DNA of 64,000 nucleotides from Cladosporium halotolerans (Eukaryota). The position numbers were made by a program, and so were the translations under genes. This document shows positions 3,002 through 56,619 of this stretch, in pieces. Under the pieces are notes generated by a model, which saw only the letters and a program-made list of their open reading frames with translations, was not told where the DNA came from and searched no databases. Position 1 is the first letter of the stretch; each line of letters opens with the position of its first letter. Where the stretch lies: assembly GCF_011745625.1 (NCBI RefSeq), contig NW_027191465.1, positions 372,001 through 436,000 of the forward strand. Direction: 5' to 3'.

Positions 3002-3107
3002 GCTCCACGATATGTATTCTTTGTCCTTGCAACGATTTAACATTCGAAACTCCTGGCCACCAGAACCTTACGATATCTGCGAGCGTATGATAACTTTGTC
3101 GTGAGAA

Positions 3108-28877: not shown

Positions 28878-29894
28878 ATGTCCGCCTACGACGACGACTA
28901 CGAACCCCGCCCTCGCCGCCACAGAGACCCTCGCCCGCCCTATCCTGACGAGCGCTTCGCTCCTGCGCCCGCCGGCCCCATCCCAGCTGCGCCGGACGCT
29001 CCCCCAGCGGCGAGCACCTCTGCCAACAGCCTCCCTCCTCCACCGCTCGGCAGCGCCATCAAACGCGAGGGCAGCCGCAACCGCAAGGCTCACCTGAAGC
29101 CGGAGTTCCCGGACGAAGCTTCATTCCTCAACGCCCGCTCCCACGACCTCGAGGGCAAGAACCGCGCCAACGACCGCCGCTTCAGAGAGAAGCGCGACGG
29201 CTACGAGGACGACGAAGGCGAGCGCCACAGACGAGCCATGGCGCCCGGACGCAGACCGCGCTACGACGACGAAGACGACCTGCCGCCGCCGCCCCGCGGC
29301 AGCCGCAGAAGAGACCGCGACCCTCCCGCAGACATGTACGGCCGCCCACCACCGCGCGACGACCCGTACGACGACCGCGAGCGCCGCCGCCCTCCGCCCC
29401 GCCGCCGCGACGACTACGACGACGAGGACAGCCTGCCGCCGCGCCGCAAAGGCCCCAGAGACGGCGTCGAGTACGGCGCGGAGCCTATCAAGCCGCGGCG
29501 CCGCGATACGGACCGCGGTCCCCCGCCGCGCAGACGCGATGACGACCGCCGCCGCCGTGATAAGTACGACTACTCCTCGGACGAGTCAGACTACCGCCCC
29601 CGCCGCCGGCGCAGCGAGGAGCCGCCGCGGCGTAGGCGCGACGACCGCTACGACGATGATTACGACGAGCCCAGGCGCAGGCGTGACGATGGTCGCCGCA
29701 GGGACAGGAGCAGACGCCGGTACTCTGATGACGAATACGACGACCGCCGTCGCGACCGCGACAGGCCGCCAAAGGAGATCAAGGTTGGCAAGTACGACGT
29801 GGGCCCGTGGCTGGAGAAGGGCCAGAAGTACTACGGCGTGGTGGCGCCCATTGTGACGCCGATGGTCATGAACTACCTGAGGAAGAAGAAATGA
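28878..29894 (+). CDS. Arg/Asp/Pro-rich low-complexity protein
   Basis: Intronless ORF with strong C/G-ending codon bias. Mixed-charge RRRDDD tracts and a short folded-looking C-terminus (KYDVGPWLEKGQKYYGVVAPIVTPMV). Confidence 0.7.
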   Translation: MSAYDDDYEPRPRRHRDPRPPYPDERFAPAPAGPIPAAPDAPPAASTSANSLPPPPLGSAIKREGSRNRKAHLKPEFPDEASFLNARSHDLEGKNRANDRRFREKRDGYEDDEGERHRRAMAPGRRPRYDDEDDLPPPPRGSRRRDRDPPADMYGRPPPRDDPYDDRERRRPPPRRRDDYDDEDSLPPRRKGPRDGVEYGAEPIKPRRRDTDRGPPPRRRDDDRRRRDKYDYSSDESDYRPRRRRSEEPPRRRRDDRYDDDYDEPRRRRDDGRRRDRSRRRYSDDEYDDRRRDRDRPPKEIKVGKYDVGPWLEKGQKYYGVVAPIVTPMVMNYLRKKK

Positions 29895-35887: not shown

Positions 35888-36708
35888 GGGATGGATCTAG
35901 CGGGTACGGTTTTTGAAGAAGGGGCTTACGTCGTTGCATTGTCGTTTCCAGCGTGGAGTTTGGGCGGCGGGATGGGATACCCTTGGGATTTACATGCACT
36001 TTTGGGGCGGATCATAGGTCCATCTGCGAGTAAATCGATATGTTTTACACCTATACTGGCTACCAGCTATTTCTAGTCGTGGTCGAGAGTGTTTCTTCTG
36101 AAAACACATATTGTCGTGGCGTTTGAAGGCTGCCGAGGTGTGGTCGGCTTGGACGAGGGATGAAGTCCGCTTTCGCACTTCGAAACCCAATGTTCATGCT
36201 TTGCCGGCACAGGCAGTCAAACATATATATGAAAGCCAGCTGGGATCACAGCTGAATTCTCCCAAACCATCGTGAAAAGAAGGCACAATGAAAACCAGCT
36301 CGGCTCGACTGTTACGCGCTGATCAATATGTGAGGGCGTAACCACCGAGCCCATTGTACAGTTTACAGAAGGTGCAAAGCCCATTCGGTATTTTCAGCCC
36401 GTTCTCGAAAGATCACTCTCATCGGCGCCTCATTTTTACTGAGGTGATGAACGCGAGGAATACTGATCTATTTCCCCATGCACTGTGGGGCTCGCATCGA
36501 GTGGGCCACACCCCACGTTCAAGGGCTTTTGTGGCGAAGATTTCGCGCTACGATCAAGTCGAATGATCAAGACGCATTTGATCGTCTACCAGGCCGTTAT
36601 GAAAGACCAGCCTCTCTTTGCGAGTAACTTCGTATACTTTTAGTTCTCATTGAACCCTACAGCACCATATGGCAGCGGGCTACTTTCCACTCTAACGAAG
36701 CATCCTTC

Positions 36709-38233
36709 ATGATGTTTCGTCAAACTCCCGACGTCACGGAAGACGACGATCCACAAGACGAGGCGCGCGACGGGATCTACCCCGAAGGCGGATGGCGGGC
36801 GTGGTCAGTTGTCTTAGGGGCCTGGTGTGCAATGGTGCCTTCCATGGGCATGCTCAATACCATCGGTGTCCTGGATGCCTGGATCGGCGAGAATCAACTG
36901 GCCAGCCTACCAAAATCACAGACGGCCTGGATAGTAAGCTTGTACGCATTTCTGCTGTATCTCGGGGGCTCTTGCATAGGTGAGGCGGCTTTCGATACTC
37001 TCATGCTATCTGGTACTTGGTACGCTTGGACTAACAATTGTGACATTGCAGGCGCAATCTTTGATCGGTACGGTCTTCGGCCTGTCATCATCCCCGGGTC
37101 TATTGGCATGGTGGTCTCGCTCATGTGTCTTAGCGTTAGCACAGGCAAGTAAAAACGCAGTGGATACCTAATGCTACGACTGACCATTTTGTGCAGAGTA
37201 TTATCAGTTCCTCTTGTCGTTCGGCGTCCTAGGCGGCTTATCGGCATGCTGTCTCTTCACGCCCAGTGTGTCGACGATCGGCCATTGGTTTTGCAAACGG
37301 CAAGGTCTCGCGACGGGCATCGCGTGCACAGCCGGCGGGATCGGCGGGATAGTGTTCTCTCTCATTATCCTCTACTGCGCCCCTGTCATCGGGTTTGGCT
37401 GGACGATGCGGATCATCGGCTTCATATCTTTAGGCCTGTGCTGCATTGCCTGCGCTACCTTGCAGACGCGGGAAGAGGCCTTATCGAAGGCCGAGAAACA
37501 CGGAAAACCGGGACTGCTTGCTTGCCTGAGGACGGCTATCGACCTCCGACCTTTAGCCCACGACCGCCCTTACCTTGCCACTACGGTTGCTGTCTGGCTG
37601 ATTGAATTCGCCGTCTTCATTCCCTTAACCTACATCTCCTCCGCCGCGATCAGTACAGGACAAGGGATGAGCTCAGAGCACGCCTACCGCCTGTTAACTC
37701 TGCTCAACGTTGGCTCGGTTCCCGGTCGCGCTCTGCCAGGCTACCTAGCCGACCGCTTTGGACGATTCAACGTCATGATACTCACAGCATTTGTTTGCCT
37801 GGTACTAATCCTTTGCATCTGGCTCCCTCCCACAGTGCTCGGGACAGCCAACGAGCCGGCATTCACGGCTTTCGCAGTCCTCTTCGGCTTCTGGAGCGGA
37901 GCGGCGATTAGTCTGACGCCGGTGTGTATAGCTCAAGTGAGCCGCGTCGAGGAGATAGGGAAGAGAGTTGGGACGACGTTCTCTATTTCGAGCGTAGGCG
38001 CTCTCGTCGGTGTGCCGATCGGTGGAGCAATTGTCGATGCGAATGGTGGAGACTATACTGGTCTGGTAGGGTTCGCGGCGGGATGCTATGTTCTGGCTTT
38101 AGGGGGGTTTGTCGTAGCTAGGTTTATAGCTAGCCTAACGCGCGCGAAAGCTATCTATCAAGGGATCGCTATTAATTTCATAGAGCTTATAAGAAACACA
38201 TATATAGAATCCAAAATCTGGAGAGATATATAA
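36709..38233 (+). CDS. MFS monocarboxylate/riboflavin transporter (MCH-like)
   Basis: Three exons. PEGGWRAWSVVLGAW, IGHWF.KRQGLATGIA..GG, GRALPGYLADRFGRFN, and multiple TM helices. Confidence 0.92.
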
Positions 38234-38381
38234 TACCGAGGGATATCTTCCCAAAGTCTAAGATGTTCATAGCGTAAAGGCACGTATGCCCTGCTAGTAA
38301 TAGTGTGGTCTTATGACTGGCAGAATAAGAATAAACGTTCAGCCAAATGGGTTCAGGATAGCGCGTATGCTACCCACTAGG
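38066..38381 (+). repeat. Left direct repeat (MFS 3' end + spacer + remnant of the CCDC130 3' end)
   Basis: Shares ggatgctatgttctggctttagg, tatcttcccaaa, taaaggcacgtatgcc and ttcagccaaatgggttca with 45308-45621, in colinear order. Confidence 0.9.
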
Positions 38382-39535
38382 GCATCTGGGACCGTTCATT
38401 AGAATGAAGTGCTACGAACCAAACTGAGCCGCTGACCGATCCGAAGCTGAGCAGCAGCGATTGCGCAGTGGCATGACCTGAGATCGACTGTGTAACAGGA
38501 AGCCTATGCTGGCAATGTTTAGCCACTTATATGGAGCTTGCCCTCTGAGCGCGATCATTGATGAGGTCCTTGGACTGCCACCAATCTTAGAAAAAGTCTA
38601 TCAACGAAGAAAGAAACGTACCTGTGACCGTTACATATCAGAAACCGAGCAGGATTCAAGTCTACTCTTGGCGTACAATTTGCCTCTACCTTGCTTGTGA
38701 GAGCAGAAGTTAGCGTCAAGTCTGTATAAGCATTCACCGTTGTCTGCTTAATACCCGATTTCTTTACAAATCTCTGCAAAGCGCCTCTCCAATGCAGCAC
38801 GGTGGACCCGATCCTGCTTCTTGAGCGAAACCAATGCGTGGCCTTAACACCTGGATTGCTCGTAATGATTCCGCATCATCTCCTTGATTGCATTGACGTA
38901 CGCATAGTCTAAGATTGCAGTGGTCTCGAGTAAGTCTCCTAATTTGCTCTCATTCGCCTCCAGTCTGTCTCAAGTGCATGATGCATGAGATTCTAGCGCA
39001 GACTCGATGCCTCTATTGACCCGTCCGTTGGCATTACGGTATCCGTATATTAACAACGGGATTCCCCCCGCTAGTCGGCTAGTGAAAGAATGGATTTTCA
39101 GATAGACTCGCAGCCGCGCCGGCTTTGTATGCTTTGTCGAAAGGCGCAAGCCCCTCAAGTAACTGCGTATGAGCGTTTGGAATTAAATCGTTCCAAGCAA
39201 CTCCTAATCTGCAATGCAACCACACACTTCATGTGAGGGGCGGGGAAAATGCCGGACTATTTACCACTGGCAAGCTGTAGGACGTTTCGCTCAATCCAAT
39301 AAGTGCAAACCCGATAATCCGGAAACATGTTGAGCTCGTTACATGGAGTGGAATGTCTTCTGATCATTGGAAATTACACTGGGCTCAAGTTATGATAACT
39401 GACCGGATATATATTTCAACGAGTGTATATGACAATAGTTGTCCTTCAGTCGTGAGTCTTAACAACAGTATGTTCTGAGCTTCCTAGCACCCTTCACGAG
39501 GAGCTGTATAGCTCAGCCAATGCAACTAAATTGCT

Positions 39536-39882
39536 TTAGGCAGAGCACGAGTCCTTTGGATAACCATCGTTGCAAGCTCCATTCTGGCATTTGATGCCAA
39601 TGCAAGACTCAGAGAATTCCCAGTAATGGTTTCCGTTGCCAGAGGGGTTGCACTTGATCTAGACTCAATTAGTGCTATTGGTTCGACGATAGCATTATCC
39701 AGGATTTCAACGCATTGTATAGCCAGAAAATATGATATGTCACTTACAACGGTGCACTCATCGTTTGAGCAGCCCAAGGTGCCAATGTGTTTACCACCGC
39801 AGCTGCTACCGAGTTTGTGGGTAGCCGACACGGATGCCGCTAGAACGGTAAAAGCAGCGCACATGGTGGTGGAGAAGTGCAT
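39536..39882 (-). CDS. Small secreted cysteine-rich protein (85 aa, 8 Cys in mature part), effector candidate
   Basis: Exons 39882-39748 and 39658-39536 (GTAAGT..CTAAT..TAG). MHFSTTMCAAFTVLAASVSA-THKLGSSCGGKHIGTLGCSNDECTVIKCNPSGNGNHYWEFSESCIGIKCQNGACNDGYPKDSCSA*. TATATAA at 40003-39997. Confidence 0.85.
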
Positions 39883-41999
39883 ATTGGAAATGGAAGAGTT
39901 GGATCTTGTTTGCTTTGGTTAAAGATGTAGCGTTCGTATTGATAGGAGGCGGCTGATGTGAGATAACGAGAGTTCAGAAAGTGAGAAGGTCGGATCTTAT
40001 ATACCTATTCACTGCCTTTTATTAGCTACTTCCTTGGCGTTCTACGCGGCCTTCCAATTGAGCTGAGGAGCATCTGAGCCTGAAGGATTAGTTGTGTGGG
40101 TCCATTCTTCCTTTATCGCAGGGTTATGTTCGCAGTCGAAGGATGAGTCGACATTGGAGTTAGTAACGATTCGGGATAATGGCACGAGCTGACCACCGAG
40201 GTCACGGTTCAAGCAGGATTCCTACACTGCCACACGAAAGCTGCGAAGTACTCTTCGAGAACAAAGTTGCACTGGCCTAGCCATTGCTTCTATCAGGTCT
40301 TATTGCCTAATCATGGTATCTCAATGACCGTGAGAGCGAGACGACATACTCTTAGTCGCAGTGGAATATGCTTAGTGTATGCAAGTGAGGACGCAAGTTA
40401 GTGAGGCGCAATGCATAGTTACGAACACCTTGAGTTGGAGTGCGTCACGTCGGAACATTAGTAGTGGGCCAGCATAAGTGTTGGGCAGAGCGCAACAAAG
40501 AACCTTTACAGGCTGTGATCGACGACATGCATACAATAAATTCTTGCAACAATGCGCTGGCATCTCGGTTGCGTGGATACATTCCCGACCTGATATGATC
40601 CTAATCGTGAAGATCCGCCAAACTTAGACTTCAAGGAGTGAAGTTCAGTGCCCCTGGATTTATGTCTAGTCGCTTATGGTCACACCCTCCGCTCCCACAG
40701 CCAGCTTCTTGGCGTCAGCTTGATTGTTGCAATGACGTCAGCGCACATAGAGGCACATAGAGGCCTAGTACTCGAACACTAGTCGAGCTGAAAGTCAAGG
40801 TCTGATCGTGGACAAGCTCGATCTGCTCTCTACACGCCAGAAATAGCTTCAACAGAAGTCGAAGAGGCCGCATGGAATGAGATCTGCAGTTTGCAGTACG
40901 GCGAATGAGAAAGCCGACCGAAATCCGTAGCAGCCGACCGAGGATGGAGATGTAACTGAATAAAAAACGCTCCCGACTACGGAAGAAGAGGCAAAAACAG
41001 ACACGATCCAACCAGACCTCGAGCACAATGCGCCAGTTCACGTGATCTCGACGTCCCTAGAAAAATCGTCGTTTTCACCATCACCGCAATCCGGCCTCTC
41101 TAGACACCCGCGTGGCTGGAATAAGGGCCAAAGGTCATGATAGACGCGACGCCCTCGGCGTTGGCGCACGCAGTGGAGCCGGGATCATGGTCTACGAGTC
41201 ATGCACTGATGTTGGCTTGATCAGCCCAGTTTCTTGCAAGGCGGCTTAGCAGGCCTATTCATATTGGGCTGCTGACGGGCCGCACTGTGGGCTATCGAGG
41301 CAACACAATCGACTCTGCTGGGAATTCAGAGGTCAAACATGTGCAAGATAAATCCGTTTGACCTAAAGCCAGGCCTCGTGAAGTCAGAGAACAGCCATGA
41401 AAGAGGCAAGAATATGGACGGCCATGAGGTAGACTTACGTACATAGCCTGAAGGACAGACATCATCACTACCGTCACTTCTCCCAAGAGATAAATTTAGG
41501 TGTAGATTTACGGTCCGCTTGAACCGTCGTACGCGCCAAGGTGAGGCTGAGCCGGTGAAGTGGGTCGGCATGTTTACAGATGCATTGCTGCAGGGTTCAG
41601 GACGCCTGTTGTGTTCCACGCTTCCCTCAACCAGCTTCCCTAACAGTACACCGTCGGGGGACATCTTCGGGGGTGGGGGGGCAACTGGCGTGAGCTGAAT
41701 GCTGCAAAGTCTCTCGCCTCAGCCCTACTTTGCTTTGCATCTGAGTGAACGTCACAGCCATGGCTTTGCTAATGGATCGATGGGTCAGAAGCGTTTCTAG
41801 TAGTGATCGTCGAACTTGCATTAAGGATGCTGCGCACTCTATCAGGTCGGCTCAGCCGGGCTTTTGAGTCACGAGGACGGCCCTAGGGACTATAACAAGC
41901 TGCGCAGTGCGAGGCAACGGCGAGCATTCTCCAGCTTCGTTGGAATATATTTGAGTGATGCGAGCCTGCTGCCTCTGAAGAGTGGTTGCCTGACGAACA

Positions 42000-44546
42000 A
42001 TGGCATTTTTCAACGTCAACTACAGCGCATTGAATTTCTCCAAGAAGGGTGATGTCTCGCCCCAGCATGAGCTGTCCGGCTTAGAGCTCGGACAGGTCCA
42101 AACTCCAAGGTCAGTCGTCCTGGTCTTCCTGGTACTCTTCCTAGCATATAGGATGGCAAGCTTAACTATGAATGACAGAATCTCAGGTCACCTCTCAACT
42201 GGGGCTAGTCTTATTGAAACGAACAACGACGATGACAGACCATTTGTTGAGCACAACGGAGCAAACAAGGACTCCAAGGACACAACGGCAGGACCGGCGA
42301 GCTCGGAACTCCCACTGGACTCTGAGGAAACCATACGCCATAACCAACAACGTAGAAGACTTCAAGGCTGGAGATTTGGCGTTGCATTTTCTGCGACACT
42401 GGCAGCCATAGTGTTGATGATCAACTTTGTTCTGGTGCTCTGGGCAAGTCTACGCCATCCACTACACGATGGTATAGGACGACTTTACGTCGGCGAATGC
42501 AACCTCGTTGATACCATGTCCTTCTGGGTACATTTACTCATCAACGGTCTGAGCTCAGCCCTGCTAGGCGCCTCTAACTATACGATGCAATGCCTCGCCT
42601 CCCCAACTCGATCAGAATGTGATACCGCTCACGCGCGTGGAGAGTGGCTCGAAATCGGTACCAGTGGGGTGCACAACCTCAAACGAGTTTCCTGGAAGCG
42701 TAGCACCGCTTGGGTCCTCTTAGGTCTGAGTAGTGTACCGATCCACCTTCTCTTCAACTCGACTGTTTTCAAGGCACTAGATGGCACTCTGCATAACATG
42801 GCTCTTGTGAACACAGCTTTCTTCGACAGGCCAAACGTGTCTGGCGATGTCGAGGCGACGGTTCGGGATCAAGGCTTTCCACCGACCTCCAGAGCGGCTT
42901 CCCAGTCCCTAGAGTTTGTTCAACACATGCAGCACACATATGCGGCCGATCAAGCCCAATTTGATCTGCTGAGCGCATCGGACTGTGTTTCTACATACGG
43001 CATGCAATTCGTCACTGGCCATTCGGACGTATTACTTGTGACTGCAGGCAACGATGTGCAAGATGAACGCACTGTGTTCTTCACAAGCTTTCTGTCGAGG
43101 GCTGAATCAGACTCATGGTGAGCTTTCATTACCCTGTAGATCTTTTGCCACCCTCTCACTCCGGCGCCCCCCCCCTCCTTTCTTCGTTGGCCGGGGAAAC
43201 ATAACTCCCAGGTTTCGGAGCCCTGTTCTTAATATCAGACCGCCTCTTCAGCCACATCTGAGCGTTACTTCCACTGACGCCACTATAGGATATGTCAGGA
43301 TGTGGACTACGGCTCATGGTATTGCGACTTCTCTAAAGTTCAGAGCAACATTACCAACTGGACTGTCGCTGGTCGAAAAATCGATCATTGCCTCGCAAAA
43401 CGCACAGACTCATACTGCCAGCTGCAGTTCTCCTCGCCCATCTCTATCGCTGTACTAGTGTGCAACCTGATCAAAGTGCTGTGTATGCTTTGGCTACTGC
43501 TGCTGCAGCGCGATGTAACACTTGTCACTTGGGGAGATGCAATTTCTAGTTGGCTGGATCAACCGGACGAGATCACGAAAAATTGTTGCCTCATGGGCAA
43601 GCAAGAGCTTACGGGACGAATGAATAGACCTGGCGACGTGTCTTTCTGTTCGCCTGAAACTGCTCATCCACTTCCCTCTCGCAATACTTTTCAACCTCGC
43701 TGGCATCACGCCGTGAGTTGGAGACGGCGGGCGGCTACATACAGCCTTTGCGTCGGAGCGCTAGTTGCCACCGGAGTGTTCCTTCATCAAGCCATCTCAG
43801 GCGTCCTCAAAGGAATCGTGGGACCAGACAGAAGCAGGTCTAATCCGATCACGTCTCTCGGTTTTGGCACCATTGAGGCAGATCTCGTCGTCGATATCGG
43901 TCTTCCAGAAAATGGTGGCCAAGGGTTCGCCGCCTCTGTCCTCCTTGCAAACTTGCCCCAGCTGGTCTCGTCGCTGCTATACATGTCCTACAATGGCTTG
44001 TATACATGCATGCACCTTGCGCATGAGTACAGTGGATTCGCCAAACATCGTAAGCCGCTGCGGGTTACGACGCCACGTGGCAAGCAAAGGACAACGTACT
44101 GGCTGCAGCTACCATACTCGTACAGTGTACCGTTACTTGTGACCTCGGTACTCCTACATTGGCTTGTCTCGCAATCGCTATTCTTGGTACGGATATCCTT
44201 CTGGTCGGACGGCGTGGAAATGGTGGAGTATAGCTCCTCAGCAGTGGGATACAGCTGTGCTCCCATCATGTGCGTAATGATACTAGGCGGCTGCATGACA
44301 CTGATAGCAATGGGACTGGGTTTTCGGAAACTCGACTGTCGTATGCCCGTTGCGGGAAGCTGCTCCATTGTTTTGGCCGCGGCCGCTCACAGGCCAGAGG
44401 CAGACGATAATGCCGCTATCTTACCGGTGAAGTGGGGCGAGGTGTCAGATGCATCTGTGTGTGACCCGGTAATTGGGCACTGTTGCTTCACGAGCGGAGA
44501 AGTGACGGATGTTCAAGAGGGTAAATTCTATGCTGGACATTTGTAG
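42000..44546 (+). CDS. Multi-pass membrane protein, DUF6536-like
   Basis: Probable introns at ~42109-42178 and 43118-43288. HLLINGLSSALLGASNYTMQCL.SPTR.ECD.AH..G.WLEIG, ANLPQL, RKPLRVT.PRG.QR.TYWLQLPY.YS.PL, GSCS..LAAAAH. Confidence 0.85.
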
Positions 44547-45307
44547 GTGCTGAAACACTCGGATCGGCAAGCGTCGTGTAGTTAAACGCTTCCATCAAGA
44601 CCTGTTTTACAAATCTTCTTTTCATAATCACTGCGACTTCGGTCGTTATGCTTCGTTCGTTTTAGAGTCACTGATACTAACCACATTCGTATGCTCTCTT
44701 GTTCCTTCTTTCGGATATACGCATAGTATGCATCCACATCAAAGATTGATTCACTACTCCGTCGCTCGGACTTATCCTCTTTCAGTTCCTCAAGCACAGT
44801 TAGAAAGCACGATATCCGTTAACGAGACGAAGCCAAGAGAATATGATGCGGAGCGAGTCTGACGAGATCTCTACAGAATTTCCCAAGGATGCTTCATTTA
44901 CCCCCTAAAATCACGGTACAAGTTCGCTTCAGGGCAAGTTCTTGGTTCATATCCAAGGAAGCAATGGACAATTCCGAACCGGCAATGATGTTACTAGAAC
45001 TTCTTTGGCCATCCATTACGACGAACTTGAAAATCGACTAGCAGACCCAGAATTGCTTCAGTCTATACCTTCGCTAGCGGATCCCGAAGACCCCCAGAAC
45101 AGCAGATTACCTTCGCCAGCCACGCAAGGCCGTGCAAGTCAGAACTGCGCTTACTATCGTCGCATCGGGAATGTTGATTTGAAATGCCACTGTAACGCAA
45201 ACTGTAGCGGGCGAATGGGACATTACATAGGGCAAAGGCTCTTGATCCGGGTACGGCGGAGCAGGCGCAATAACATTGTCCTCCCCAAGATCGCAAAGAG
45301 TAGACCA

Positions 45308-45621
45308 GGTGGGTTTGCGACAGGATGCTATGTTCTGGCTTTAGGAGGGTTTGTCGTGGCTTGGTTTATAGCTGCTCCGAAACGCGTAGTAGCTGTCTAT
45401 TGAAGTTTAACTATATGAGCTACATATAATTGAGAAATAAATGGGCAGGATGTACAGGATCGTGAGATGTGTAATGCCAACGGGTATCTTCCCAAACTCC
45501 AGGTAATCATATCATAAAGGCACGTATGCCTTGCCAGTGACGATTGTGTGGTTTTCAAACCAACAAGTAGGTTAGATTTCAGCCAAATGGGTTCAAGGCA
45601 GCGCGTGTGCTGCCTACTAGG
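45308..45621 (+). repeat. Right direct repeat (MFS 3' remnant + spacer + functional CCDC130 3' end)
   Basis: Encodes an orphan GFATGCYVLALGGFVVAWFIAAPKRVVAVY*, which matches the MFS C-terminus. Confidence 0.9.
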
Positions 45622-46472
45622 CGACGCCGCAAAGCATCTTTCTTGCTCTCGCTGTGCTTGACAGCCGAGCTCGATTTTGATCGTGAAGGTGTCTTCACAG
45701 TTTGGCGAGCCGGTGATCGTAAGAAGTTGCTCGAACCAGTTCCATTTGGCGCATTAACGTTAGTGCTCCCAAAAGAGACTAACTTGGCTCTTTGAGCATC
45801 TTGTTCTGCTTCGGGCAATATATCGATGTTCGTGCCTAGCCTCTCCTTCAAGCTTTCCGTGGCATCATCTTCCCTCTTACGAAGTTTTCTCTCACGACGG
45901 AATGTGTTTCTCAGCTTTTTGTTGACCGCACCAGGATCTTCCCAGTCTCGCTCCCTAGATCGATATAACTCCTCAATCCGCTTCGCATTATCCTTCACGG
46001 CTTCTCTATCCTCTACCTTGCGCTCAAGGGCCGCGAAAGCATCCTCCCTCCTCCTTTCCCTCTCTTCGGGCGTCAAAATTGGCAGGCCATCTTCGCCTTC
46101 TCGAACGCGATCTTTGCCCTCGCCGTAGTCTCTCGCCTTACCCCCATCCGTAACAACATAGGCAGTCTCTTTCGGATCGGTCTTGATCTCCAAGTACCCA
46201 CCACACGCCGCGTGCTTGATCCTGAACTGCCAGATCGGCGTACTATAGTAATAGCCAATCTTTTTCTTCTCGGCATTAAAGCGCACGCCCTGTCCGATTA
46301 TGGCATGGGGCTTGCAGGTATGACACCAGACGGCGAAGGGCATTTCGAAGCGGACGGTCTGCGTGCCGTCCTTGCGGAGCGTCCCAGGCGCACGCTTCTT
46401 GTTCAGCCGGTTGCCGGACGTGGTACCTTCGAGCTCCGGCGGGACGTAGCGTCCCATGTTGAAGCCTTGCAT
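45579..46472 (-). CDS. CCDC130: Saf4/Yju2 (CWC16) family splicing factor, CCDC130-type
   Basis: MQGFNMGRYVPP, VRFEMPFAVWC..C, GQGVRFNAEKKK.G.YYSTPIW.F, IKTDPK. Confidence 0.92.
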   Translation of the reverse strand: MQGFNMGRYVPPELEGTTSGNRLNKKRAPGTLRKDGTQTVRFEMPFAVWCHTCKPHAIIGQGVRFNAEKKKIGYYYSTPIWQFRIKHAACGGYLEIKTDPKETAYVVTDGGKARDYGEGKDRVREGEDGLPILTPEERERRREDAFAALERKVEDREAVKDNAKRIEELYRSRERDWEDPGAVNKKLRNTFRRERKLRKREDDATESLKERLGTNIDILPEAEQDAQRAKLVSFGSTNVNAPNGTGSSNFLRSPARQTVKTPSRSKSSSAVKHSESKKDALRRRLVGSTRAALNPFG

Positions 46473-49141
46473 CTTAGCGAGGTTGACAGCGGCCCCTCTG
46501 CGCTGCGCGTGTCAGAGTGGTATCGTGGGATTGGCGACTATGCGCGGCGCTCCATGTGCCCAGCAAGAGGATCAGGCAGTCGCGGAAGTGCTGTCCATCT
46601 TCACGGCCACTGATGGCGTTTTGACATGCTGTCAGTGCATGGCTGACGTTACCGCGAGGCGCGTGTCAATTGGTGAAGGAGGTCAGGGACGAAGTTGCGA
46701 TCGCGGGGAAAAGGTCAGCAGAAACTCCTTCTGCAGCACCGGATCTCCAACATCAACTCCAAGCTGACATTGTGTTGGCACGTGATTTCGTACATCGTTT
46801 ACTGAAGAGTGCGAATGCGAACATAGGACAAGACGAACCTGTTTGATTGTGCGCTATGTGGGACATGTCCAGGGCGGTGAAATCGCGAGAGGTGTGGCGG
46901 ACTGCAATCTCACTGCATCCGCATCACCTCCAGCCGTCTTTGCCTCTCAACTGCCACTCACTCAAACCGCGTCGTCAGAACCCATTATCGCCATCAAGGA
47001 CCAGCGTCTAACTATTTCAAATGCTAAGGCCTTGGCTCATTGCTGAGGTACACATGTTCGCTCATGGCGTCCCTGGCAAAGCCGCATTCTGTTTTCCCGA
47101 CCGATTCCATGCGAAAGTTCTCGTGCCTAGCCACGTTTTCGCCATTCCGCTGCGTGCTATTCTGAGATCCCGTACGATATCAAAGGAGGCTCAAGTCTAG
47201 ATTACTGGCTTGCATCGCTCTTTTCGTGCCAATGAAGCGGGCGTTTCATTGAGGCGTTGTTTGAAGGTTTGTTCCTAGGCAAATATGCTTGATCGAGGAT
47301 GCCGACGGAGATTAAGCATCTATTCAAAGGACTTTGCCTAACGTGCGAGGGTAGAGCCGTGGTTTGTAGCTTTTGCCGCGCGCTGCAGCACGCAGGAGTT
47401 CTCATCCTGGTTCTCTGCCGAGTTGACTTGGAGACAGGGATCAGGCAAAGAAGAAGCGGCACGGAGTATAATTGCATACTATCTCCAATCCGCCTGTCCT
47501 TGCCTCCAGGCTCATACGCCTTGGCTCATATGCTGCAAGTGATCTGTCTCCGACACAAATAATACGCTAGCGACCATGTGACCTAAGCATTTGGCGGTCT
47601 GGCCTAGATCTCGAACAATGGCGGCTACTGAATTGCCGCGCTGACAATCAGCATCTAAAACAACTGTCGCCTGAACGCCAAAACAATACTCTCACCGCGT
47701 ATTGTCCATGCGCAGGACCCGGGCCTTACCGATTCGATGAAGATTATACCGCTGGCTTAGTGCTAAGCGAAGCTGAACCGGATCACCCCAGAGCCCTAAC
47801 CGTTCCTGTCGTGGTTCATGCTGGGTCTCTACAGTACAAGCGGATGCTGGCATGCGAAAGTGAGCGGTATGATGCAGCGTCATGGGTCCCATGTTCATCT
47901 CATTTCCACTGTCGCCCATTCTACCGCGAAAGAAGACTGAGTGCTGACGACGTGACAGCTGTGCGAACATGGTTTTTCGGTTCCACGACAAGCATATGCA
48001 AGCCATGGCTAGCGCAGCCAGTGAAATGCTTTGCCCTTCGCCTTGGTACAATGGTCAGGCTAAGGCTGTGCATAGCTCGACGCGTGATGGATCCCTCGTG
48101 TCTGTAAGTTCAAGGCTGAGAAATCGATGTCACCACAAGCTTACGATACACATACCGTGCGACTCGCGCGACACCTTGGACCCGGCCGGCCCTAGCTCGA
48201 TGCCCATATCCGGCCACAAACCACAGAGATGCCGCATGTGCAGCAACGTGGTGGCGCAACATCTGCAGCCACCGGGATCCCCGCAGTTACGGCTCACACA
48301 GCTGCGGCGTGGCAGACACAACTCAGCATCTCCCTCTCGTGCTTGGCCTGAGACAATATCTCAGCCTTCCGAAGAGCCGGGAGCTTGTCCGTTGAGCTTA
48401 ACTTCTCGGCCTCGTCTGTGGCGGCGCGATATGAGAAAAAAGTTCCAGATCACCACAACAAGAGATTGGCGTCCTCGCGGCGATAATGCACCCTTCGCCT
48501 GCAGCTGCAAGACCCACACGTACGCCTGGATCTTCCAGCTGCATATCGCGTTCACATCGCAGCCTGCCGTCGGAGAATACTGCACCGGCAATCACCGCAT
48601 TTAGCAAAGCGAAAGGTTCCCCCACCATACCTCTGCGTCGTGATGATGACGGACCCAGACGTGCCGCAACCCATGGCTCTCACTCGCACCACGCGATCAT
48701 TTCCCGCCTCGGACAGCCCGCAAATGGCGATGCCTAAGCATGTGCTGTTCCCTCACTGCCGCCTGACCATACCCCATGCAGCAGCCTCACCACCCCGGCA
48801 CCAGACGCTTTTGGACTGGTCGATAGTATCCTGCTTGGTCGATGGCGTTGTGGATCGCTTAATGGGATTGCCAAGGGCTGAAGGTTGCTGTGGCTCTTCT
48901 GGTCACCGTAATCCAGTCCAGGCTTGTCCGCCGGGACATCTGCTCTCCTGAAGAATAAGTACCTCGCTCATTTCCTCCAAAAAACCTTTGATCTTCCACC
49001 GCATCTCCAGCGAACACATTAGCCCAGCACCTTTTGCTCCATTCGTTCGTGCTTTCAACGCACTTCATCCTCGCAACTTTCCTGGTCTCATCCCTCACTT
49101 CGCAACCGAAGTCTTCAGGAATTCATTCTACCTCCGTCACC

Positions 49142-49972
49142 ATGCGCTTCATCTTCGCTCTCGCGGCTCTCGCAGCCACCGCTGCCGCAGCTCCCTGGGC
49201 CAACTGGGGTGTCTCGCATGGCCTCAACTACCCGCGCACGACCTCCAACTGCATGAGCGACTCTGACGCCACCAAGGTCGCCAACAACTTCAAGACGCTC
49301 ATCGCCGCCTACAGCGATTCTTTCTCCAACAAGACCATGGCCGTCGACTTCGTCGACTATTCCGACTCCGTCATGGAGCTCATCAACGGCGGCTGCGAAG
49401 GCCCTGAAGTGGTATGCTTACACATCCAATCTCCCTCGCCTGCCACTGGGCTGCGAGATTTCGTGCATCTGACTTACATGCGTTCTCTTCTCCCTTGCAG
49501 CTCGGCACTGCCGTCTTCTCATCCCGAGCCGAATTCCAGGCGGGCCAGGGTGCGCAGCCCCCCATTCCATTCGAGATCATCAAGACTTGGAACGCCTGCA
49601 GCGCCGTAAGTATAATCTGCAATCCCCCTCATGTCTTCAAAGCCGTACCCGCTGAGTGTAACAACGCAGGTTACCATCCGCTGGCAGTCCGCGCAGACCC
49701 CCCAGCTCGTCACCGGCATCATCGTGATCGAGGTCGTTAAGAACGCCGACAAGAAGGCTTCGCAGAAGTGGCTCATCAAGACCGTCTACTCCGAGTTCAA
49801 CTCCGGTACGTCCCATCGGCTTTGCATTGTTCTATTGTTCTGTTATGTCAGGAGTGTGACTAATCATTTCCCAGGCGCCTGGCTCGTCAACCTCGACGTC
49901 TTCAACCCGCCCGTCTGCCCGGCGCCGCCGCCTCCCACTTCCACTCCTTCTCGCCGCATGCTGTTCGTCTAG
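49142..49972 (+). CDS. Secreted protein, probable NTF2-like fold
   Basis: Signal peptide MRFIFALAALAATAAA and three GT-AG introns. DFVDYSDSV, FSSRAEFQAGQGAQP, IRW, WLIKTVYSEFNSGAWLVNL. The fold assignment is inference. Confidence 0.75.
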
Positions 49973-50280
49973 AGGAGTGTGCTTGCCATCGTCTGATCGA
50001 ACGATCTGAACGGACAGTTTGACCGGCTCCTCGAACCTTTTCCGTCACTTAGTCTTCTCTTGGAAAAATCTCATGTTTCCCCTTCGTCTGCGCAGCGAGA
50101 AGTATTCCTCCAGCCGCAACTAGACTCTTTTGAAAAGTCTTTTTGGGTGATGTTTACCTGGCGTGGCGTAGGTGCAAGACATTCTGGTACGAATAGCTAC
50201 GATAATCTTGAATGCGGCGTTGTCATCACTTCCTCACATCATCGTTCCCTTTACCTCCACACCCATCAATATCTCCAAAC

Positions 50281-50713
50281 TGTCACTTGCCGCCCAACTC
50301 CCATCCTCGCACCTCTCAGACAAAGCTGAAGCTCAAAGACCTGACTCGCAAAGCCGACCCTCGACTCTGCGCCCCGGCAAATCCAGCCTGGCTCCCCACC
50401 TCGCAACTCCGCAGGATCCAGATCGGCGCGCTGGCGCGCAAGCGAGAGCGCTAAACTCTATCGGGCTCGCATTCGTAGGTTTGTCGAACCTGCGTTTTGT
50501 GGCCTATAGGTGGATGGGGTGACGTAGGCTGTTTGGGAGCGTTCCTCTTTTTTTTTGTGTGAGACGTAAGTCTTTGATGTGCCGGGCGGATTTGGAGTTT
50601 GAAATCTGGAGAGTTGGGGTGAGGCCGATGGGTCGGATGTGGGGTTAGGTCTGGGTTGGTTCGGGGTTAGGGCAAGCAGAGGGATAGGCACGGATGGAGA
50701 TGTGGCTGTGACA
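50281..50713 (+). repeat. Imperfect long inverted repeat / fold-back structure
   Basis: Seven nested complementary blocks sharing one symmetry axis near 50496 (see findings). Confidence 0.7.
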
Positions 50714-50844
50714 TGGTAAGGTATAGGTTCTCGCATTATCTATCGTGATCGTCCAAAAATATCTAGTGCGCCGGTGCTGTCAAGAAACCGCAAGTGTCCA
50801 AATGCCCATGCGCGCAAAACAACTCTCAAAAATCAATCGCTTCC

Positions 50845-52182
50845 TCAATACCCAATATCCACACTGGTAACATCCTCAACGAAATGCTTCTCCCTGCTCG
50901 CGCGAGTGAACCACAGGAACCAGGGGATAACGTAGGTCTTGATCGTGTGCCCGATGTAGCCGGCGTCGCTGACGGTCGAGACGACGCTCTTGCTCTCCTC
51001 GAAGGCGGCCTCGATGCGCGCGCGCCGCAGCTTCTCGTACGCGTCGAAGGCCTCCTTCATGCTGCCGGGCTTGCCCTTCTCGATCCAGCGCGTCAGGCAG
51101 CGCGAGAAGAGGACGGTGTCCTCGAAGACGATGCCGGTCGATTCGCCTTGGGGAGGCATAGCGTGCTGGAGGGGGGGTATTAGCGAAGTCTTCTTCAATT
51201 CATCAGTTCTTGAGCTGGGTCCACTTACTGCTGCATCACCGAGAAGCATAACGCGGTCCGTAGCCCACTTGCCGTGCTTAGACAGAGTGAAAACAGGCCA
51301 CAGGAAGAAATCCTGCGCCTTCTCGATCAAAGGCTTGATGCTGGGGATCTTGGCATCACCGAAACGCTCCAGAATATCCGCGCGGATCTTCTTCTCGTCC
51401 GCGCCCGCGGCCTTCCAGCCATCGCGCGACTCCAGCTCCGGCAGCTGCATCAGCGCGCCGACGTAGATCGAGTCCTTCTGCGAGTTGTGGTAGCTGGTGA
51501 GCAGCATGCCGCGGCGTGCGAAGTTGATGGCGGTGCACTCGAAGTGCACGGTAAAGTCGGGCTCGACGGGCGCGAAGCCAAAGGCGTTGCAGAGGCCCGA
51601 GTAGGTGGCTTTGCGCTCAGGCTCGACGTGCTTCAGGCGCGTGACGGAGTGGATGCCGTCGCAGCCCATGAGCAGGTCGGCGCTGGCGGAGCCGCCGTCT
51701 TCGAAGGTGAGGGTGACTTTGTCGGCGGTCTCTTTGATGTCTACCGTGCGCTTGCCGCAGGTAAGGGTGATGTTCTCGTGCTGCTCAACAGCGGCCAGGA
51801 CGCCTTTCAGGGCGTCGCCACGGGTGATTCGCAGGGCCTTGTAGGGAGGGTTGCCGATGCCCTTGCCTTCTGGACCGCTGAAGTCGGAGGTAGCGAGTCT
51901 GGTAGAGTAGATGTCGAAGACCTCAAGGTAGTCGATTGTTCGGCCATAGTCTCTCTCGCGGATGATCGGCAGAGCACCAAGGTGGTCTAGGAGCCTCAGG
52001 GCATTGGGTGTGAGGTTGACAGCACCGCCGATAGTCGCTGGCACTGTACGGATCTCGAAGATCTGAATTCGGGGCACCTGACCCTTGGGAGCGTACTTGG
52101 TGAGGGCGAGGGCAGTGGTCAAGCCTGCAATGCCTCCTCCGAGGATGATCACGTTCAAGCCATCTGGCGAGGCGGGAGCCAT
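50845..52182 (-). CDS. FAD-dependent monooxygenase (salicylate hydroxylase-like)
   Basis: IILGGGIAGL, GCDGIHS, LLGDAA|HAMPP with an in-frame 63-nt intron at 51166-51228. Confidence 0.92.
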   Translation of the reverse strand: MAPASPDGLNVIILGGGIAGLTTALALTKYAPKGQVPRIQIFEIRTVPATIGGAVNLTPNALRLLDHLGALPIIRERDYGRTIDYLEVFDIYSTRLATSDFSGPEGKGIGNPPYKALRITRGDALKGVLAAVEQHENITLTCGKRTVDIKETADKVTLTFEDGGSASADLLMGCDGIHSVTRLKHVEPERKATYSGLCNAFGFAPVEPDFTVHFECTAINFARRGMLLTSYHNSQKDSIYVGALMQLPELESRDGWKAAGADEKKIRADILERFGDAKIPSIKPLIEKAQDFFLWPVFTLSKHGKWATDRVMLLGDAAVSGPSSRTDELKKTSLIPPLQHAMPPQGESTGIVFEDTVLFSRCLTRWIEKGKPGSMKEAFDAYEKLRRARIEAAFEESKSVVSTVSDAGYIGHTIKTYVIPWFLWFTRASREKHFVEDVTSVDIGY

Positions 52183-53231
52183 GGCAGTCTGCAGTCTGGT
52201 GGGGTTTGAGGAGGGTAGTTGTGGGGTAGTTGGAGATCAATGATGCCGTGTTTCGACGACGGTGAAGCAGCGAAGGAGAGGAGCCCGAAAGAAAGATGGA
52301 AGAGCACTTACAACTTCGGCCGGAGCGGCCGGTGTCTATCAAAAGATGCTGACAGCGGTTCAGCGCCAGAGCTCAGGGCGGATCAGGTCAGGTCCAAGCC
52401 CTGCAGGAAGCAGGTCGATGTCGCGCTGCGGCGTTTCGTGGGGCCGATTCACATCAGCGGCGCGGGCAGCGACAGCTCGGCGTGTGGCAGCAGCGAGAGG
52501 CCGACGCCGCGCAGCCGGTCGCAGCGCTCCATTCGTCGATGGCGCGCTCGGCTGGCTGCACAGGCATCTGACCGGCAACGAGACTTTGCGGCTGCGCGTG
52601 AGATGCTGCTTTGAGACGCGTTGGCAGCAGCGATCACAGCGATCACCGCGTGGGTGGAGACGCTTCCTCGGAATAGCGCTGAGCTTATGCCATAAACTCC
52701 GAGCGCTAGCCACAGCTGTGACCCCAAAAATGGAAACGCCCAAGAGGCGGAGTCCCGCTGTGATGGGGGTCTACTGGCTGGGCGAGGCGTGGCGGGGCCT
52801 ATCTCACCTTGCAGCCTCACCTGCGAGAACCGCATGCATCCCGTTTCGGCGTACGGTGATGGAGACGGGAGCGTTGGTGCTGGAGATCTGTCTCATGTGG
52901 CTGATTGATGACTACGAAACGCTATCTTGGACTTGGTTGGTCTTGAACATCGTTGTAGGTTGAAAGAGTTCACGTTGGTGAAATCGGCAGACGTCAAGTT
53001 TCACGATCACCAAGGTTGCCTAAACGTCTTTCTCCAACCACACGTGCCGCTTCCCCGACTTGTACGACATCGTCCGTGCGTCACTGACCACAGACTTTGT
53101 GGGTACGGCTACATCGCGGGCATGCACATGGCCGACACGCCGTGTTCGTTATCGTGCTGTCGCCGATCATCCGTGTACAGAGTATGGACCTTCCTTGAAT
53201 ATCCTATTCCTCATCATTCACGTGTCCAACT

Positions 53232-56200
53232 TCAATCGCTTTCCAACCAGTCCGGTTCCGCGTCGTCGTCTTCCGGATCATGCGAGAGCAAGCTTCCACG
53301 ATCTTCCTCGTCTTCGTCGTCTCTGTCCATCGGGCCCTTATCCGTAAGGGGTCCTAGGTCGGGTAGGGCTGGTTTTTGCCTTCCCGAGTGGGCGACGCCA
53401 GGGTCCGTCTCTGCAGCATCGCTGGCTGGAGTGATTCGTTTCACAATTTCGTTGTTCGCAGTGATTCCTTCGTCTGCGACAAGTTCAGCTCGACCGTTAG
53501 CATCCTGAGATGTGCGTTTGTTCATCTTGGCCTCATCTGTGCCGAGATCCAGTCCATGGTCATTAGATTCGATCGGCATAGAATCTCCCCCAGCGAAGCC
53601 GCCGCCAGTGCCATCATCGCCGAACAGATCATCCTCTGCAGACTTATCCTGATCAACGTCGACGATGAATCCACCGCCACTGTCTCCATCACCGAATAGA
53701 TCATCCTGTGCAGGCCCACCCATGTCATTTTCGACAACAAACCCACCGCCTCCCATATCATCCACTGTATTTTCGGGCAGAAATCCTCCCCCTGACTCCT
53801 CAGCATCTGTGTTCGTTGTGATGAAGCCGCCTTCCTGCCCTGCGCTTTCATCCGGTAAGAACCCACCGCCGCCGCTATCTTCAGGCACAAAGCCGCCGCC
53901 CGTCTCAATCGTCTCCTCCGCTTGGTCAGGAAAGAACCCACCACCGCCACCCTCGTTGTCAGGCATGTACTCTGCCTCATCGTCATCTTCCTCATCGACC
54001 ACAGCGATGCCCTTCTTCCGGCCGCTTCTGCGAGCAGACGACGCGAAATCGTCATCGTCGTCCTCAACTTCGCTTTCGTACGATTTCTTCTTGCTTTTTC
54101 GCGCCGGTTTGGAAGGCATCGCGAGCTCCACGATCGAGAATTGGCCCGCCGTGGGCATGGTGGCGTCTGAAGCGTTCGTGGATTCATCCGCATCGCCGAC
54201 TGCAGATTCGCCTTGACCCAGTTCATTGTCATCCACCGCCTCTGTCGTGCTCTTTTCTCCATACGCAGCCACCCTCTCAGCAATGCGCAGACCCTTCAAG
54301 AAACGCGCCCACAACCGCAGCGCCGCCAGACTCCGGGCCTTGCTCGCGTCTAGCAAAGCTTCACACTCCAAGCCCTCAATGATAGCCTCCACGGCTTCGC
54401 CGTGCTCCTGCGAAACCACTGCACCCTCGATGATGGCAGTTCCTTTGCGCCCCTGAAACTTGAATCCTGTCACGGCGTCGGAGAAATCGATGTTCAGAGT
54501 CCGGGCAGCTTGCTGAGTCAACGCGTGCCGAATGTGCACACCGCCCGCAGGCACCATGGACGGAACATAGACGTCCAGATTCCCAAACGCGTTCTTCGGC
54601 ACCTTGCCCTTTCTGACAGGAGGCGGGACATAGACCTGCGTCTGGTGGATCGAATAAAGCGCCGTAGTAGGAGCGCCAGCCTCCTCGTCCTCGTCCTCCG
54701 GATCTCTGCGCCGAGAAGCGCGAGCAGGGACGTGCTTGAGCGGCTGCTCGCCGCGCTTGACTTCACGCCCGAGCCTATACCACTTGTCCGCGCTTTTGCA
54801 AGAGAGGACATCCTGCCGGCGGAAAACGGGCTCCATGCGCGGTTTCGCGGCCGTGCCGGCGTTGACTTTGCCTGCTTCGCGGCGAGGGTGCAGCACCTCG
54901 TGGCGGCGGAGGTGGCGTTCGAGAGCGTAGTAGGGATGGTCTTTAAAGTCGAGCACGTTGCTCGGCAGGCCTTCTCTCGCCTCCTTTTGCGCCAGCTCCG
55001 CGTCCTCCACCTGGTCGCGGTCGAGTCTGCTGCGGCGGCGGAAGAGCCGCAGGGCTTTCTTGAGCCATTTCGCGCCTTCTTCGCCGCTGCTCTCGACGCG
55101 CTGCCGGCGGGTCTTGGCGTTGAAGGCTTTGGCGTAGCGGCGAGTGACGTCGCGGGCGACGCCGTTGGATTCGAAGGCGATGGCGTAGATCAGCATGTTC
55201 AGATCGTAGGATGCGGGAGGCTCGATTTTGCTCGGTTTGCCGACTGTGTTGGTCACCATGGGGTCGACGGGGATCCATTTTTGGTGGGCGGTGTTGAAAG
55301 CTTCGACCCAGTAGACGGGATATGACAGGGTGCGGATTGGCTTTTTCTTTTCTTTGGGAGGCGGCGCGGTCATCACACTTGGAGAGAAGCCGGGCTGTCC
55401 TAGCCGTCGTCGTATTGAAGGTACTTTGCCGAATGTTGCGGAAGACTCCATGTTACCGTCGCTAGCGCTGGCATCACTGAGGTTGGGGTCGGTGTCAGGC
55501 GCAATGGCAAACACTGCTGGTTTCTTCTGTTTCTGTGGCGTGCTAGATTTCGGTGGAGGGTTCGCAAATGGGAGCGTCTGCAATGAGCACACCAAGCGAG
55601 CTTCCACACCAGCAGCTCGGAGCATGGCACAGAACAGCTGGTTCCCGGTGTCCTGTGAGCCTTCCAGGTCTCTTGCGGCTGACACGAAGTCGGCAAGATC
55701 CATGGGCTCTCCGTCTGCTGAAGATGATGGGCCGTCTCCGTTGTCCCCATCTGACGCCCAGCGAGGCCTGGCCATGCCTGAAGATGTAATCCTAAACTCG
55801 GCTTTGAAAGCAGTCTTTGCCTGCTCTAAGCCATCCATGAAAGAGCGATTGCGCTGGAACTGCGTATCATTGATCTTTGGGTTTAGATAAGACTTCATAC
55901 GCTTATCGACCAGCTTTCCTGTAAGCTTTTGTACAGCTGCACTGTTACAGCGGCTGTTGGCATACATGCAGTGGCCAAGTAGGGTGAGAAAATGCACCTT
56001 GTGCACACGCAGTCGGGAGGCTTTCTCAGAAGCAGAGGCAGGTTTGCGGCGATGGACTGTAGCTTTCTGTGCAGAGCCAGGCGGAGCAACGGAGGCCGCA
56101 ACATCAACGATGTCTTCATATTCGTCTTCTTGAGCAGGAGCTGGGCTTGAAGCTTCTTTTGGACCCAGATCGACATCTTCAAATCCGAAATCGCTCTCTT

Positions 56201-56570: not shown

Positions 56571-56619
56571 GACGATTACTTAGGTGATCAAGTGGTGATG
56601 TTTCCCAGAAGCTGCGTGT

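Follow-up and report, generated by a model that had tools for sequence, protein, structure and literature searches.

In a 64,000-nucleotide window of the Cladosporium halotolerans genome (assembly GCF_011745625.1, contig NW_027191465.1, positions 372,001 to 436,000; all coordinates below are those of this window), the 3′ ends of a transporter gene of the major facilitator superfamily (MFS) and of the convergent gene for the spliceosome factor CCDC130 are separated by a 6.9-kb island, which is bracketed by two direct copies of a junction made of the ends of these same two genes. We give about even credence to the view that the locus records an old insertion made without a transposon, through a staggered break, fill-in, and end joining. 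On present evidence, it is a rearrangement scar or repair footprint with an asymmetry, not a new mobile element. The features concerned are the following.

36709 to 38233, plus strand: live MFS (monocarboxylate-type) transporter gene (Pfam MFS_1, 6.3e-25; orthologues 94% to 68% identical)
38069 to 38381, no strand: left junction copy (J_L), with MFS tail 38069-38158, spacer 38159-38337, and dead CCDC130 tail 38338-38381 (minus strand); possibly extending to 38387
38382 to 45310, no strand: 6.9-kb island, presumably inserted; GC content 0.46-0.55 compared to 0.55-0.65 in the flanks, without mobile-element features
39536 to 39882, minus strand: gene for a secreted Cys-rich protein, with exons 39882-39748 and 39658-39539 and an 89-nt intron, 39659-39747 (GTAAGT...AG)
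42000 to 44546, plus strand: intact gene for a DUF6536/DUF8419 multi-pass membrane protein (Pfam DUF6536, 5.5e-55), with introns at ~42111-42179 and 43118-43288
45311 to 45621, no strand: right junction copy (J_R), with dead MFS tail 45311-45403, spacer, and live CCDC130 tail; possibly extending to 45639
45579 to 46472, minus strand: live, single-exon Saf4/Yju2 (CCDC130) gene (Pfam Saf4_Yju2, 6.7e-61; orthologues 95% to 60% identical)

A repeat search and blastn identified 38069-38381 and 45311-45621 as the direct repeat pair of the window that brackets the 6.9 kb. The repeat search returned three co-linear direct blocks at offsets of 7242 and 7240 (38069-38158 versus 45311-45400, 90 nt, 80%; 38267-38298 versus 45507-45538, 32 nt, 88%; 38338-38381 versus 45578-45621, 44 nt, 86%), and gapped blastn merged all three into a single alignment with 223 of 317 positions identical (70%), 10 gap positions, and an E value of 3e-45. 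The copies measure 313 and 311 bases and consist of unique gene-end sequence, each comprising the last 30 codons of MFS (plus strand), a spacer of ~180 bases, and the final 13 codons of CCDC130 with its stop codon (minus strand). In J_L, which is continuous with the body of MFS, the MFS tail is live and the CCDC130 tail is dead (LVGSIRAILNPFG, then stop); in J_R, which is continuous with the body of CCDC130, the MFS tail is dead and the CCDC130 end is live (LVGSTRAALNPFG, then stop). The similarity ends sharply on both sides, and the ends of the copies coincide. A preliminary description of this DNA had reported diverged direct repeats of ~315 bp around ~7 kb, with this same composition and the same live and dead ends, and both claims were confirmed by the alignment, the sequence, and the Pfam matches.

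By eye, the hexamer GCATCT is present at 38382-38387 and at 45634-45639, and the right end of the repeat may thus extend by 6 bases. This extension needs a 12-nt in-frame deletion (Leu-Arg-Arg-Arg codons) in the left copy relative to 45622-45639; the dead CCDC130 tail then seems two codons longer (Asp-Ala), and the original duplication would be ~330 bases. Within the spacer, the blocks 38243-38257/45483-45497 and 38267-38298/45507-45538 are 88-100% identical between the copies, and the remainder is ~60% identical. One of these blocks contains the 15-mer AAAGGCACGTATGCC, which is found nowhere in the window except in the two copies of this block (chance expectation, 0.1). The blocks may represent shared 3′-end or termination signals of the convergent genes. 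No further occurrence of the two conserved spacer motifs was found in the window or in 24 related metagenome loci (see below), Rfam gave no matches in 36000-47000, and the spacers from relatives aligned to neither junction spacer.

The two MFS tails have decayed to different extents. According to the preliminary description, J_L completes the MFS gene, and the live gene does end there, but its stop codon has moved: CAA has replaced the ancestral stop at 38159-38161, and the reading frame continues for 24 further codons to 38233. In all 8 outgroup loci and in 4 sister types from the closest lineages, the MFS protein ends with ...GP[KR]xxxxx[YF] and the stop. The dead tail in J_R still reads ...APKRVVAVY followed by TGA at 45401-45403, so that the PKR motif and the ancestral stop are kept; the live tail in J_L reads ...SLTRAKAIYQ, with the conserved motif and the stop gone, and then continues for the 24 additional codons. 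The copies differ at 6 of 57 positions in bases 1-57 and at 17 of 36 positions in bases 58-93. At differing sites, the outgroup majority agrees with left and right in a ratio of 2:2 in the first segment and 2:8 in the second, and the protein sequence encoded by bases 1-57 of the left copy is identical to that of the sister types. Seven fixed differences in 251 columns separate the MFS proteins of island-bearing and sister lineages, and five of these lie in the last 12 codons (binomial P of 4.8e-6). Beyond the last transmembrane helix, the left copy thus underwent a burst of change, on the branch that also carries the insertion. Both copies share a derived Val-to-Ile codon, ATA at bases 58-60, where every one of the 8 outgroups and 4 sister types has Val; this common Ile codon argues for a common origin of the copies within this clade. 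The asymmetry is possibly due to relaxed constraint on a dispensable tail combined with changes resembling repeat-induced point mutation (RIP), or to a crossover at about base 57 with an incoming copy that had already decayed. Selection on the last transmembrane helix could lead to the same switch pattern.

To describe the divergence of the copies, a global alignment was used, which contained 51 transitions, 25 transversions, and 22 gap columns distributed as follows.

MFS tail: 72 of 90 positions identical, 14 transitions, 4 transversions, 0 gap columns
Spacer: 115 of 167 positions identical, 31 transitions, 21 transversions, 22 gap columns
CCDC130 tail: 38 of 44 positions identical, 6 transitions, 0 transversions, 0 gap columns

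The direction of the transitions was balanced, with A/T in the left copy at 28 sites and in the right copy at 23. At the sites where the left copy has T or A, 14 of 28 were in CpA context, compared to a background of 27%, and CpA was enriched there only. The pattern expected of RIP alone, C:G to T:A changes in CpA context in both copies, was not found in the copies, and the composite RIP indices of the island were negative and unremarkable. RIP may have contributed to the divergence; the transversions and indels, however, point to ordinary long-term divergence and exclude RIP as the only cause. The earlier view that the spacer transversions exceed what RIP alone predicts thus stands, and so does the great age proposed for the event, which is supported by the divergence of the copies and by the occurrence of the decayed tail and the island in two sub-lineages. 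A donor from a diverged lineage, which had been offered as the alternative, is not needed: no observation requires one, and the derived change common to both copies argues mildly against it. The protein distance to the sister types is ~0.03-0.06 per site and the raw spacer divergence is 31%, which by our own estimate, not by computation, fits a duplication soon after the split from the sister types.

The cargo of the island consists of two divergently transcribed genes, for a Cys-rich secreted protein and a DUF6536-like protein, in agreement with the first reading of the sequence. The small secreted protein has a signal peptide and 8 Cys residues in its mature part. Its exon 2 matches an 85-aa homologue, P0396, with 68% identity (E value of 4e-11) and identical Cys pattern and spacing; two other matches, to long proteins, were weak. 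Rows of the Atlas naming the Bubble protein (0.84) for this protein were below the lead threshold and were discarded. For the DUF6536 gene, the splice ...ESDSW/ICQDV of the source model P0391 (768 aa) confirms the 171-nt intron 43118-43288. Its Atlas family rows (0.97-0.98) are Ascomycota-wide families without assigned function, and a literature search on DUF6536 returned nothing pertinent. In a search with exon 2 alone, in which full-length models of >739 aa were outside the candidate set, the nearest relatives outside the species were 82, 79, and 77% identical, the next ones at most 52%, and all named matches were from Dothideomycetes. Judged from these sequences, there is no sign of a distant transfer of the cargo.

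The absence of a transposase and of terminal inverted repeats, also claimed at the outset, was corroborated. None of 16 further island open reading frames (ORFs) had a Pfam match, and among 16 further long ORFs of the window Pfam revealed ordinary genes only and no transposase or recombinase domain. Comparison of the first and last 400 bases of the island gave chance matches only (best 14 nt, E value of 0.054). No second copy of the island was found in the 64-kb window or the 24 metagenome loci, and queries with the ORF of the small secreted Cys-rich protein (SSCP) and with DUF6536 exons 1 and 2 had no match in these loci. DNA transposons and Starships leave target duplications of a few bases and have defined ends and a transposase or a DUF3435 captain, respectively. 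The island resembles them in that direct target repeats stand on both sides of a gene-carrying insert. It differs from them by a repeat of ~313 bases, and neither a transposase or captain nor defined ends, such as terminal inverted repeats with a short target duplication, were found in the island and window.

The preliminary description had itself raised the possibility that the duplication is an assembly artefact. We assign practically no weight to this explanation. Of 24 listed public runs, 20 hold the stretch wholly or partly and 17 contain at least half of the sampled words; 12 studies are represented. Four runs (X2, X4, X16, and X19) were compared, as contigs, with 37000-56999. In X2, a single, independently assembled contig of 15,241 bp covers 37000-50543 with 46 mismatches and thereby spans both copies, and contig depth is flat across the island. 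The contigs of X4 cover 38032-43149 and 43167-45612, and X16 and X19 contain numerous short pieces within the island, so that island pieces are present in all four compared runs, and in this sample the island appears fixed. Independent Logan contigs of other studies thus cover both copies and the island, and as the copies are only 70-75% alike, mis-joining is implausible. Joints that skip the island or back-joints of a circle were absent from the four runs, with the limit that contigs drop rare circles and empty alleles. In X2, two tiny contigs with depths of 813 and 505 (locus, 19.5) touch 45640-45673 and 46438-46472; these are probably chance matches of CCDC130 to abundant sequence. Extra depth over MFS and CCDC130 was seen in metagenome X4 and was not used as evidence.

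For the state of the locus in close relatives, the 90% clusters around the best matches were examined, and two kinds of MFS protein were found. Window-type proteins carry the tail ...ARFIASLTRAKAIYQ plus the extension (P0361-P0365, P0367, and P0370). Sister-type proteins, 94% identical to that of the window, terminate with the canonical ...ARFVAGPKRAVAVY and the stop (P0001, P0369, and P0368; P0366 is a small variant); the lineages of P0001, P0369, and P0368 belong to the Cladosporium sphaerospermum complex. The CCDC130 cluster splits likewise, with the sister types P0376, P0374, and P0373 being 95% identical. The sister-type MFS proteins (P0001, P0369, and P0368) and CCDC130 proteins (P0376, P0374, and P0373) are encoded on identically sized contigs of 7388, 4481, and 52203 bp. 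That three lengths agree exactly among so few entries is not chance, and each MFS/CCDC130 pair therefore lies on one contig. With 948 + 879 = 1827 bp taken up by the two ORFs, the 4481-bp contig has 2654 bp to spare and the 7388-bp contig 5561 bp. Since the island and the second junction copy require 7242 bp, MFS and CCDC130 lie close together without the island in these sister lineages, and from their sizes the two short contigs look like an empty site. In a second window-type sub-lineage, MFS P0363 and DUF6536 P0393 are on contigs that both measure 11,024 bp; both island-bearing sub-lineages have the decayed MFS tail and the island. The island-bearing rows are monophyletic in the MFS tree (support 100/99) and in the CCDC130 tree (96/95), inside a well-supported group, and the sister types form a basal polytomy in both trees. 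One gain is therefore at least as parsimonious as loss. Look-ups of ORF starts added no shared sister contig: 11 guessed starts were unmatched, and W-up, CDK1, and Rad4 were matched.

More distant relatives show another arrangement. A metagenome scan with the C-terminal part of MFS yielded the 24 loci mentioned above, of which 11 (L001-L010 and L024) were at orthologue level (68-79%). None of the 24 was matched by tblastn when CCDC130, DUF6536 exons 1 and 2, the small ORF, or the upstream gene served as query. In 8 of the 11 loci (L001, L002, L004, L005, L006, L007, L010, and L024), tblastx against the window showed that MFS is followed by CDK1; as L004/L005 and L010/L024 look like duplicates, these 8 loci represent 6 distinct sequences. 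The gap between the MFS stop and CDK1 is ~450-550 bases, and CDK1, identified by Pkinase (9e-49) and the source name, corresponds to window positions 58381-57350, that is, in inverted orientation. L005 and L007 continue collinearly with Rad4 (56.3 to 53.9 kb), a FAD monooxygenase (52.2 to 50.8 kb), and a small gene at 49.8-49.5 kb, where the loci end. In Cladosporium sp. NU13, MFS (g00851) and CCDC130 (g00846) are located on one 991,311-bp contig, and the four genes between them equal in number those between CDK1 and CCDC130 in the window. The block delimited by these comparisons comprises CCDC130 and the following features.

45579 to 58452, no strand: five-gene block, in inverted order compared with other Cladosporium (tblastx of L005/L007 against the window, Pfam, and NU13 gene numbers)
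~49.1 to 49.9 kb: small gene of the block
50848 to 52182, minus strand: FAD monooxygenase gene
53235 to 56570, minus strand: Rad4 gene
~57350 to 58381, plus strand: CDK1 gene

We infer from these orders that the older arrangement was probably MFS, CDK1, Rad4, monooxygenase, small gene, and CCDC130. As MFS stands next to CDK1 in the distant relatives, the MFS/CCDC130 junction would first have been made by inversion of the five genes. The other breakpoint should lie in 58382-60498, because MFS lies ~450 bases from the end of CDK1 in relatives. The region 58382-60498 comprises ~2.1 kb without a recognisable gene after the 3′ end of CDK1, with a GC content of 0.49, and only 58382-58452 matches relatives. 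The preliminary description had proposed an ancestral tail-to-tail pair and a check of relatives for adjacent MFS and CCDC130. The closest lineages, judged by the paired contigs, bear this out with a single junction, but the pair is ancestral to a small clade only, since MFS adjoins CDK1 in 8 of the 11 distant loci. At L003 (9121-12220), an MFS relative with 75-77% identity has neither CDK1 nor any other window gene within 3.1 kb downstream and 7.5 kb upstream; this is a paralogue or, alternatively, the locus in a third arrangement. L008 and L009 terminate at or within MFS. Two further contig pairings were set aside: P0046/P0144 on 4352-bp contigs, which is likely a coincidence, given two lists of 120, and is at odds with the NU13 gene numbers, and P0069/P0138 on 26,924-bp contigs, which was not used.

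A history in three steps would account for these arrangements. First, the block from CDK1 to CCDC130 would have been inverted in an ancestor common to C. halotolerans and the lineages closest to it, and the 3′ end of CCDC130 would have met that of MFS. This junction would then have received, on the stem branch of the halotolerans-type clade, a chromosomal segment of 6.9 kb with both cargo genes: the target strands would have been cut ~313-330 bases apart, the overhangs filled, and the fragment end-joined, leaving a junction on both sides. Subsequently, the redundant halves would have decayed by substitution, small indels, and some RIP-like C-to-T changes. Neither neighbour was truncated because the duplicated stretch covered both coding tails, and the complete copies with coincident ends fit a duplication at the moment of the insertion better than a later insertion into a tandem pair. 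We infer both the polarity, a gain here and not a loss in the sisters, and the staggered-break mechanism.

The mechanism has a precedent in Drosophila. According to Ranz et al. 2007 (PMC1885836), staggered breaks at inversions left duplications with a median of 321 bp and a range from 46 bp to ~1.9 kb at 17 of 29 inversions. As in the cases described there, unique breakpoint sequence including gene ends was duplicated at the Cladosporium locus without a transposon and without repeats at the breakpoints, the size is in the range, the copies diverged by substitutions and small deletions, and the locus had previously been inverted. In Drosophila, however, the copies are inverted around an inversion; in the fungus they are direct and flank a 6.9-kb insertion. 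By analogy, the same mechanism applied to an insertion would give direct repeats. Local inversions are reported as typical of Dothideomycetes and underlie mesosynteny (PMC3219968 and PMC3516569), in which content is kept while order and orientation are shuffled, as seen for the block from CDK1 to CCDC130; mesosynteny is a pattern and does not include a duplication-flanked gene insertion. Literature searches on DUF6536 and on long target duplications among filamentous fungi turned up no account of an insertion like this one.

Several points weigh against this history. Staggered breaks were put forward to explain inverted duplications at inversions, not direct repeats around an insertion. No source locus was traced for the 6.9 kb, the nearest outside relatives of its DUF6536 gene being the ones with 82, 79, and 77% identity. 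Adjacency and a single junction in the sisters were deduced from matching contig sizes. Finally, plain fill-in does not predict the uneven decay, with 5 of 7 fixed changes in 12 codons and 8 versus 2 sites favouring the dead right copy, and a single crossover ~57 bases into the junction would explain this asymmetry more naturally.

Such a crossover is the core of a Campbell-type integration, in which a circle with the 6.9 kb and a diverged junction copy recombined with the resident junction ~57-63 bases from its start. The preliminary description had offered single-crossover integration of circular DNA beside repair with a very long target duplication. On this view, the MFS end now in use would be element-borne, as would the left spacer and the dead CCDC130 tail, and the native MFS end would have been displaced to the far side. 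The switch point agrees with this, as the left copy equals the sister types up to base 57 and beyond it the right copy is ancestral-like (8 versus 2 sites, stop and PKR kept), and so does the tight clustering of the fixed changes. In run X16, a 30-letter loose end of a diverged relative before 45576 is, by eye, ~26/30 like the right spacer and far less like the left one, and direct repeats of such length would permit excision and re-integration. Set against this, no recombinase was found in the island or window, and no circle junction was found in the four runs at the level of contigs. A circle with junction and island presupposes an earlier junction-island-junction arrangement and thus explains spread, not origin. 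Moreover, with the derived Ile codon common to both copies, any donor would belong to the same young clade, and the long branch of the left copy would be left without an explanation; the copies differ at 6 of the first 57 bases compared to 17 of 36 in bases 58-93. We regard this explanation as unlikely.

Slightly less credible is the reverse polarity, in which the junction-island-junction arrangement predates the split and the sisters lost the island by recombination between the direct repeats. Such a deletion leaves one clean junction and an ancestral-like MFS end, as in the sister proteins, and a single loss could suffice because the sister types are unresolved as a grade. In the 30-letter sister-like snippet, the copies differ more from each other than the right copy differs from the relative. 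The burst in the MFS tail, however, maps to the stem of the island-bearing clade, the derived codon common to the copies is absent in all four sister types, and recombination is unlikely between copies that are 70-75% alike. The raw spacer divergence of 31% is also in keeping with the distance between the proteins and those of the sister types.

An improbable third explanation consists of two further inversions with re-used breakpoints and one 313-base staggered break, which placed a native neighbour segment between the copies. The locus was already inverted once, and the sources cited above describe small inversions as frequent in Dothideomycetes (PMC3219968, PMC3516569) and breakpoint re-use and staggered-break duplications in Drosophila (PMC1885836). 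This scenario requires two extra events and predicts the island genes nearby in the sisters, but no close DUF6536 match was found on the 52,203-bp sister contig, and no inverted remnants of the junction were found elsewhere in the window.

It is also conceivable, although we consider it quite improbable, that junction-island-junction is a working recombinase-free cassette, the circle of which re-enters plain junctions by homologous single crossover and thereby replaces the MFS end. Prophages and genomic islands insert at the 3′ ends of tRNA or protein genes and bring a replacement end. The locus is similar to such integrative elements in that the genes stay whole through a second 3′ end, the displaced ancestral-like MFS end stands at the far side, and the direct repeats could support excision. 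It is dissimilar in that no integrase was found in the island or window, the repeat is a two-gene junction, the host is eukaryotic, and no circle was seen in the four runs. If the cassette reading were true, the decayed, extended MFS tail would be cassette-borne, and the locus would be a fungal counterpart of bacterial islands integrating at gene 3′ ends. A tandem duplication of the junction followed by an unrelated insertion between the copies deserves very little credence: tandem duplications a few hundred bases long are frequent, but the copies are complete and their ends coincide, so that the later insertion must have struck the exact boundary within ~626 bases.

Other features of the window were noted in passing. 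A 39-nt direct repeat (85%) at 18984-19022 and 22777-22815 brackets a large NACHT-type (NPHP3_N) and ankyrin-repeat gene (ORF 19417-22554, minus strand). Inside ORF 28488-29891 (plus strand), which has no Pfam match and probably encodes an acidic Tyr-Asp-rich repeat protein, positions 28867-29759 contain diverged direct repeats (33-48 nt each) in which GACGAC/TACGAC is frequent. Near the start of the window lies an ORF of the UstYa-like mycotoxin-biosynthesis family (2388-3101, plus strand, 1e-28), and near its end lie a cytochrome P450 gene (62389-63966, minus strand) and a split Sulfotransfer_4 gene (60502-61445, minus strand).

If the insertion-scar reading is correct, accessory genes were gained in the convergent 3′ junction of a spliceosome-factor gene and a transporter gene with neither being truncated, and the locus would provide a clean, datable fungal example of such a gain. 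The neighbours would have been spared through duplication of their tails together with their common 3′ region. Three successive states of one locus, MFS-CDK1, MFS-CCDC130, and MFS-island-CCDC130, would be preserved within one genus, and breakpoint mechanisms in mesosyntenic fungi would thereby become testable on real sequence. The two junction copies would also offer a natural test of which parts of a bidirectional 3′ region have to be retained after duplication, and of how far a transporter can dispense with its C-terminal tail.

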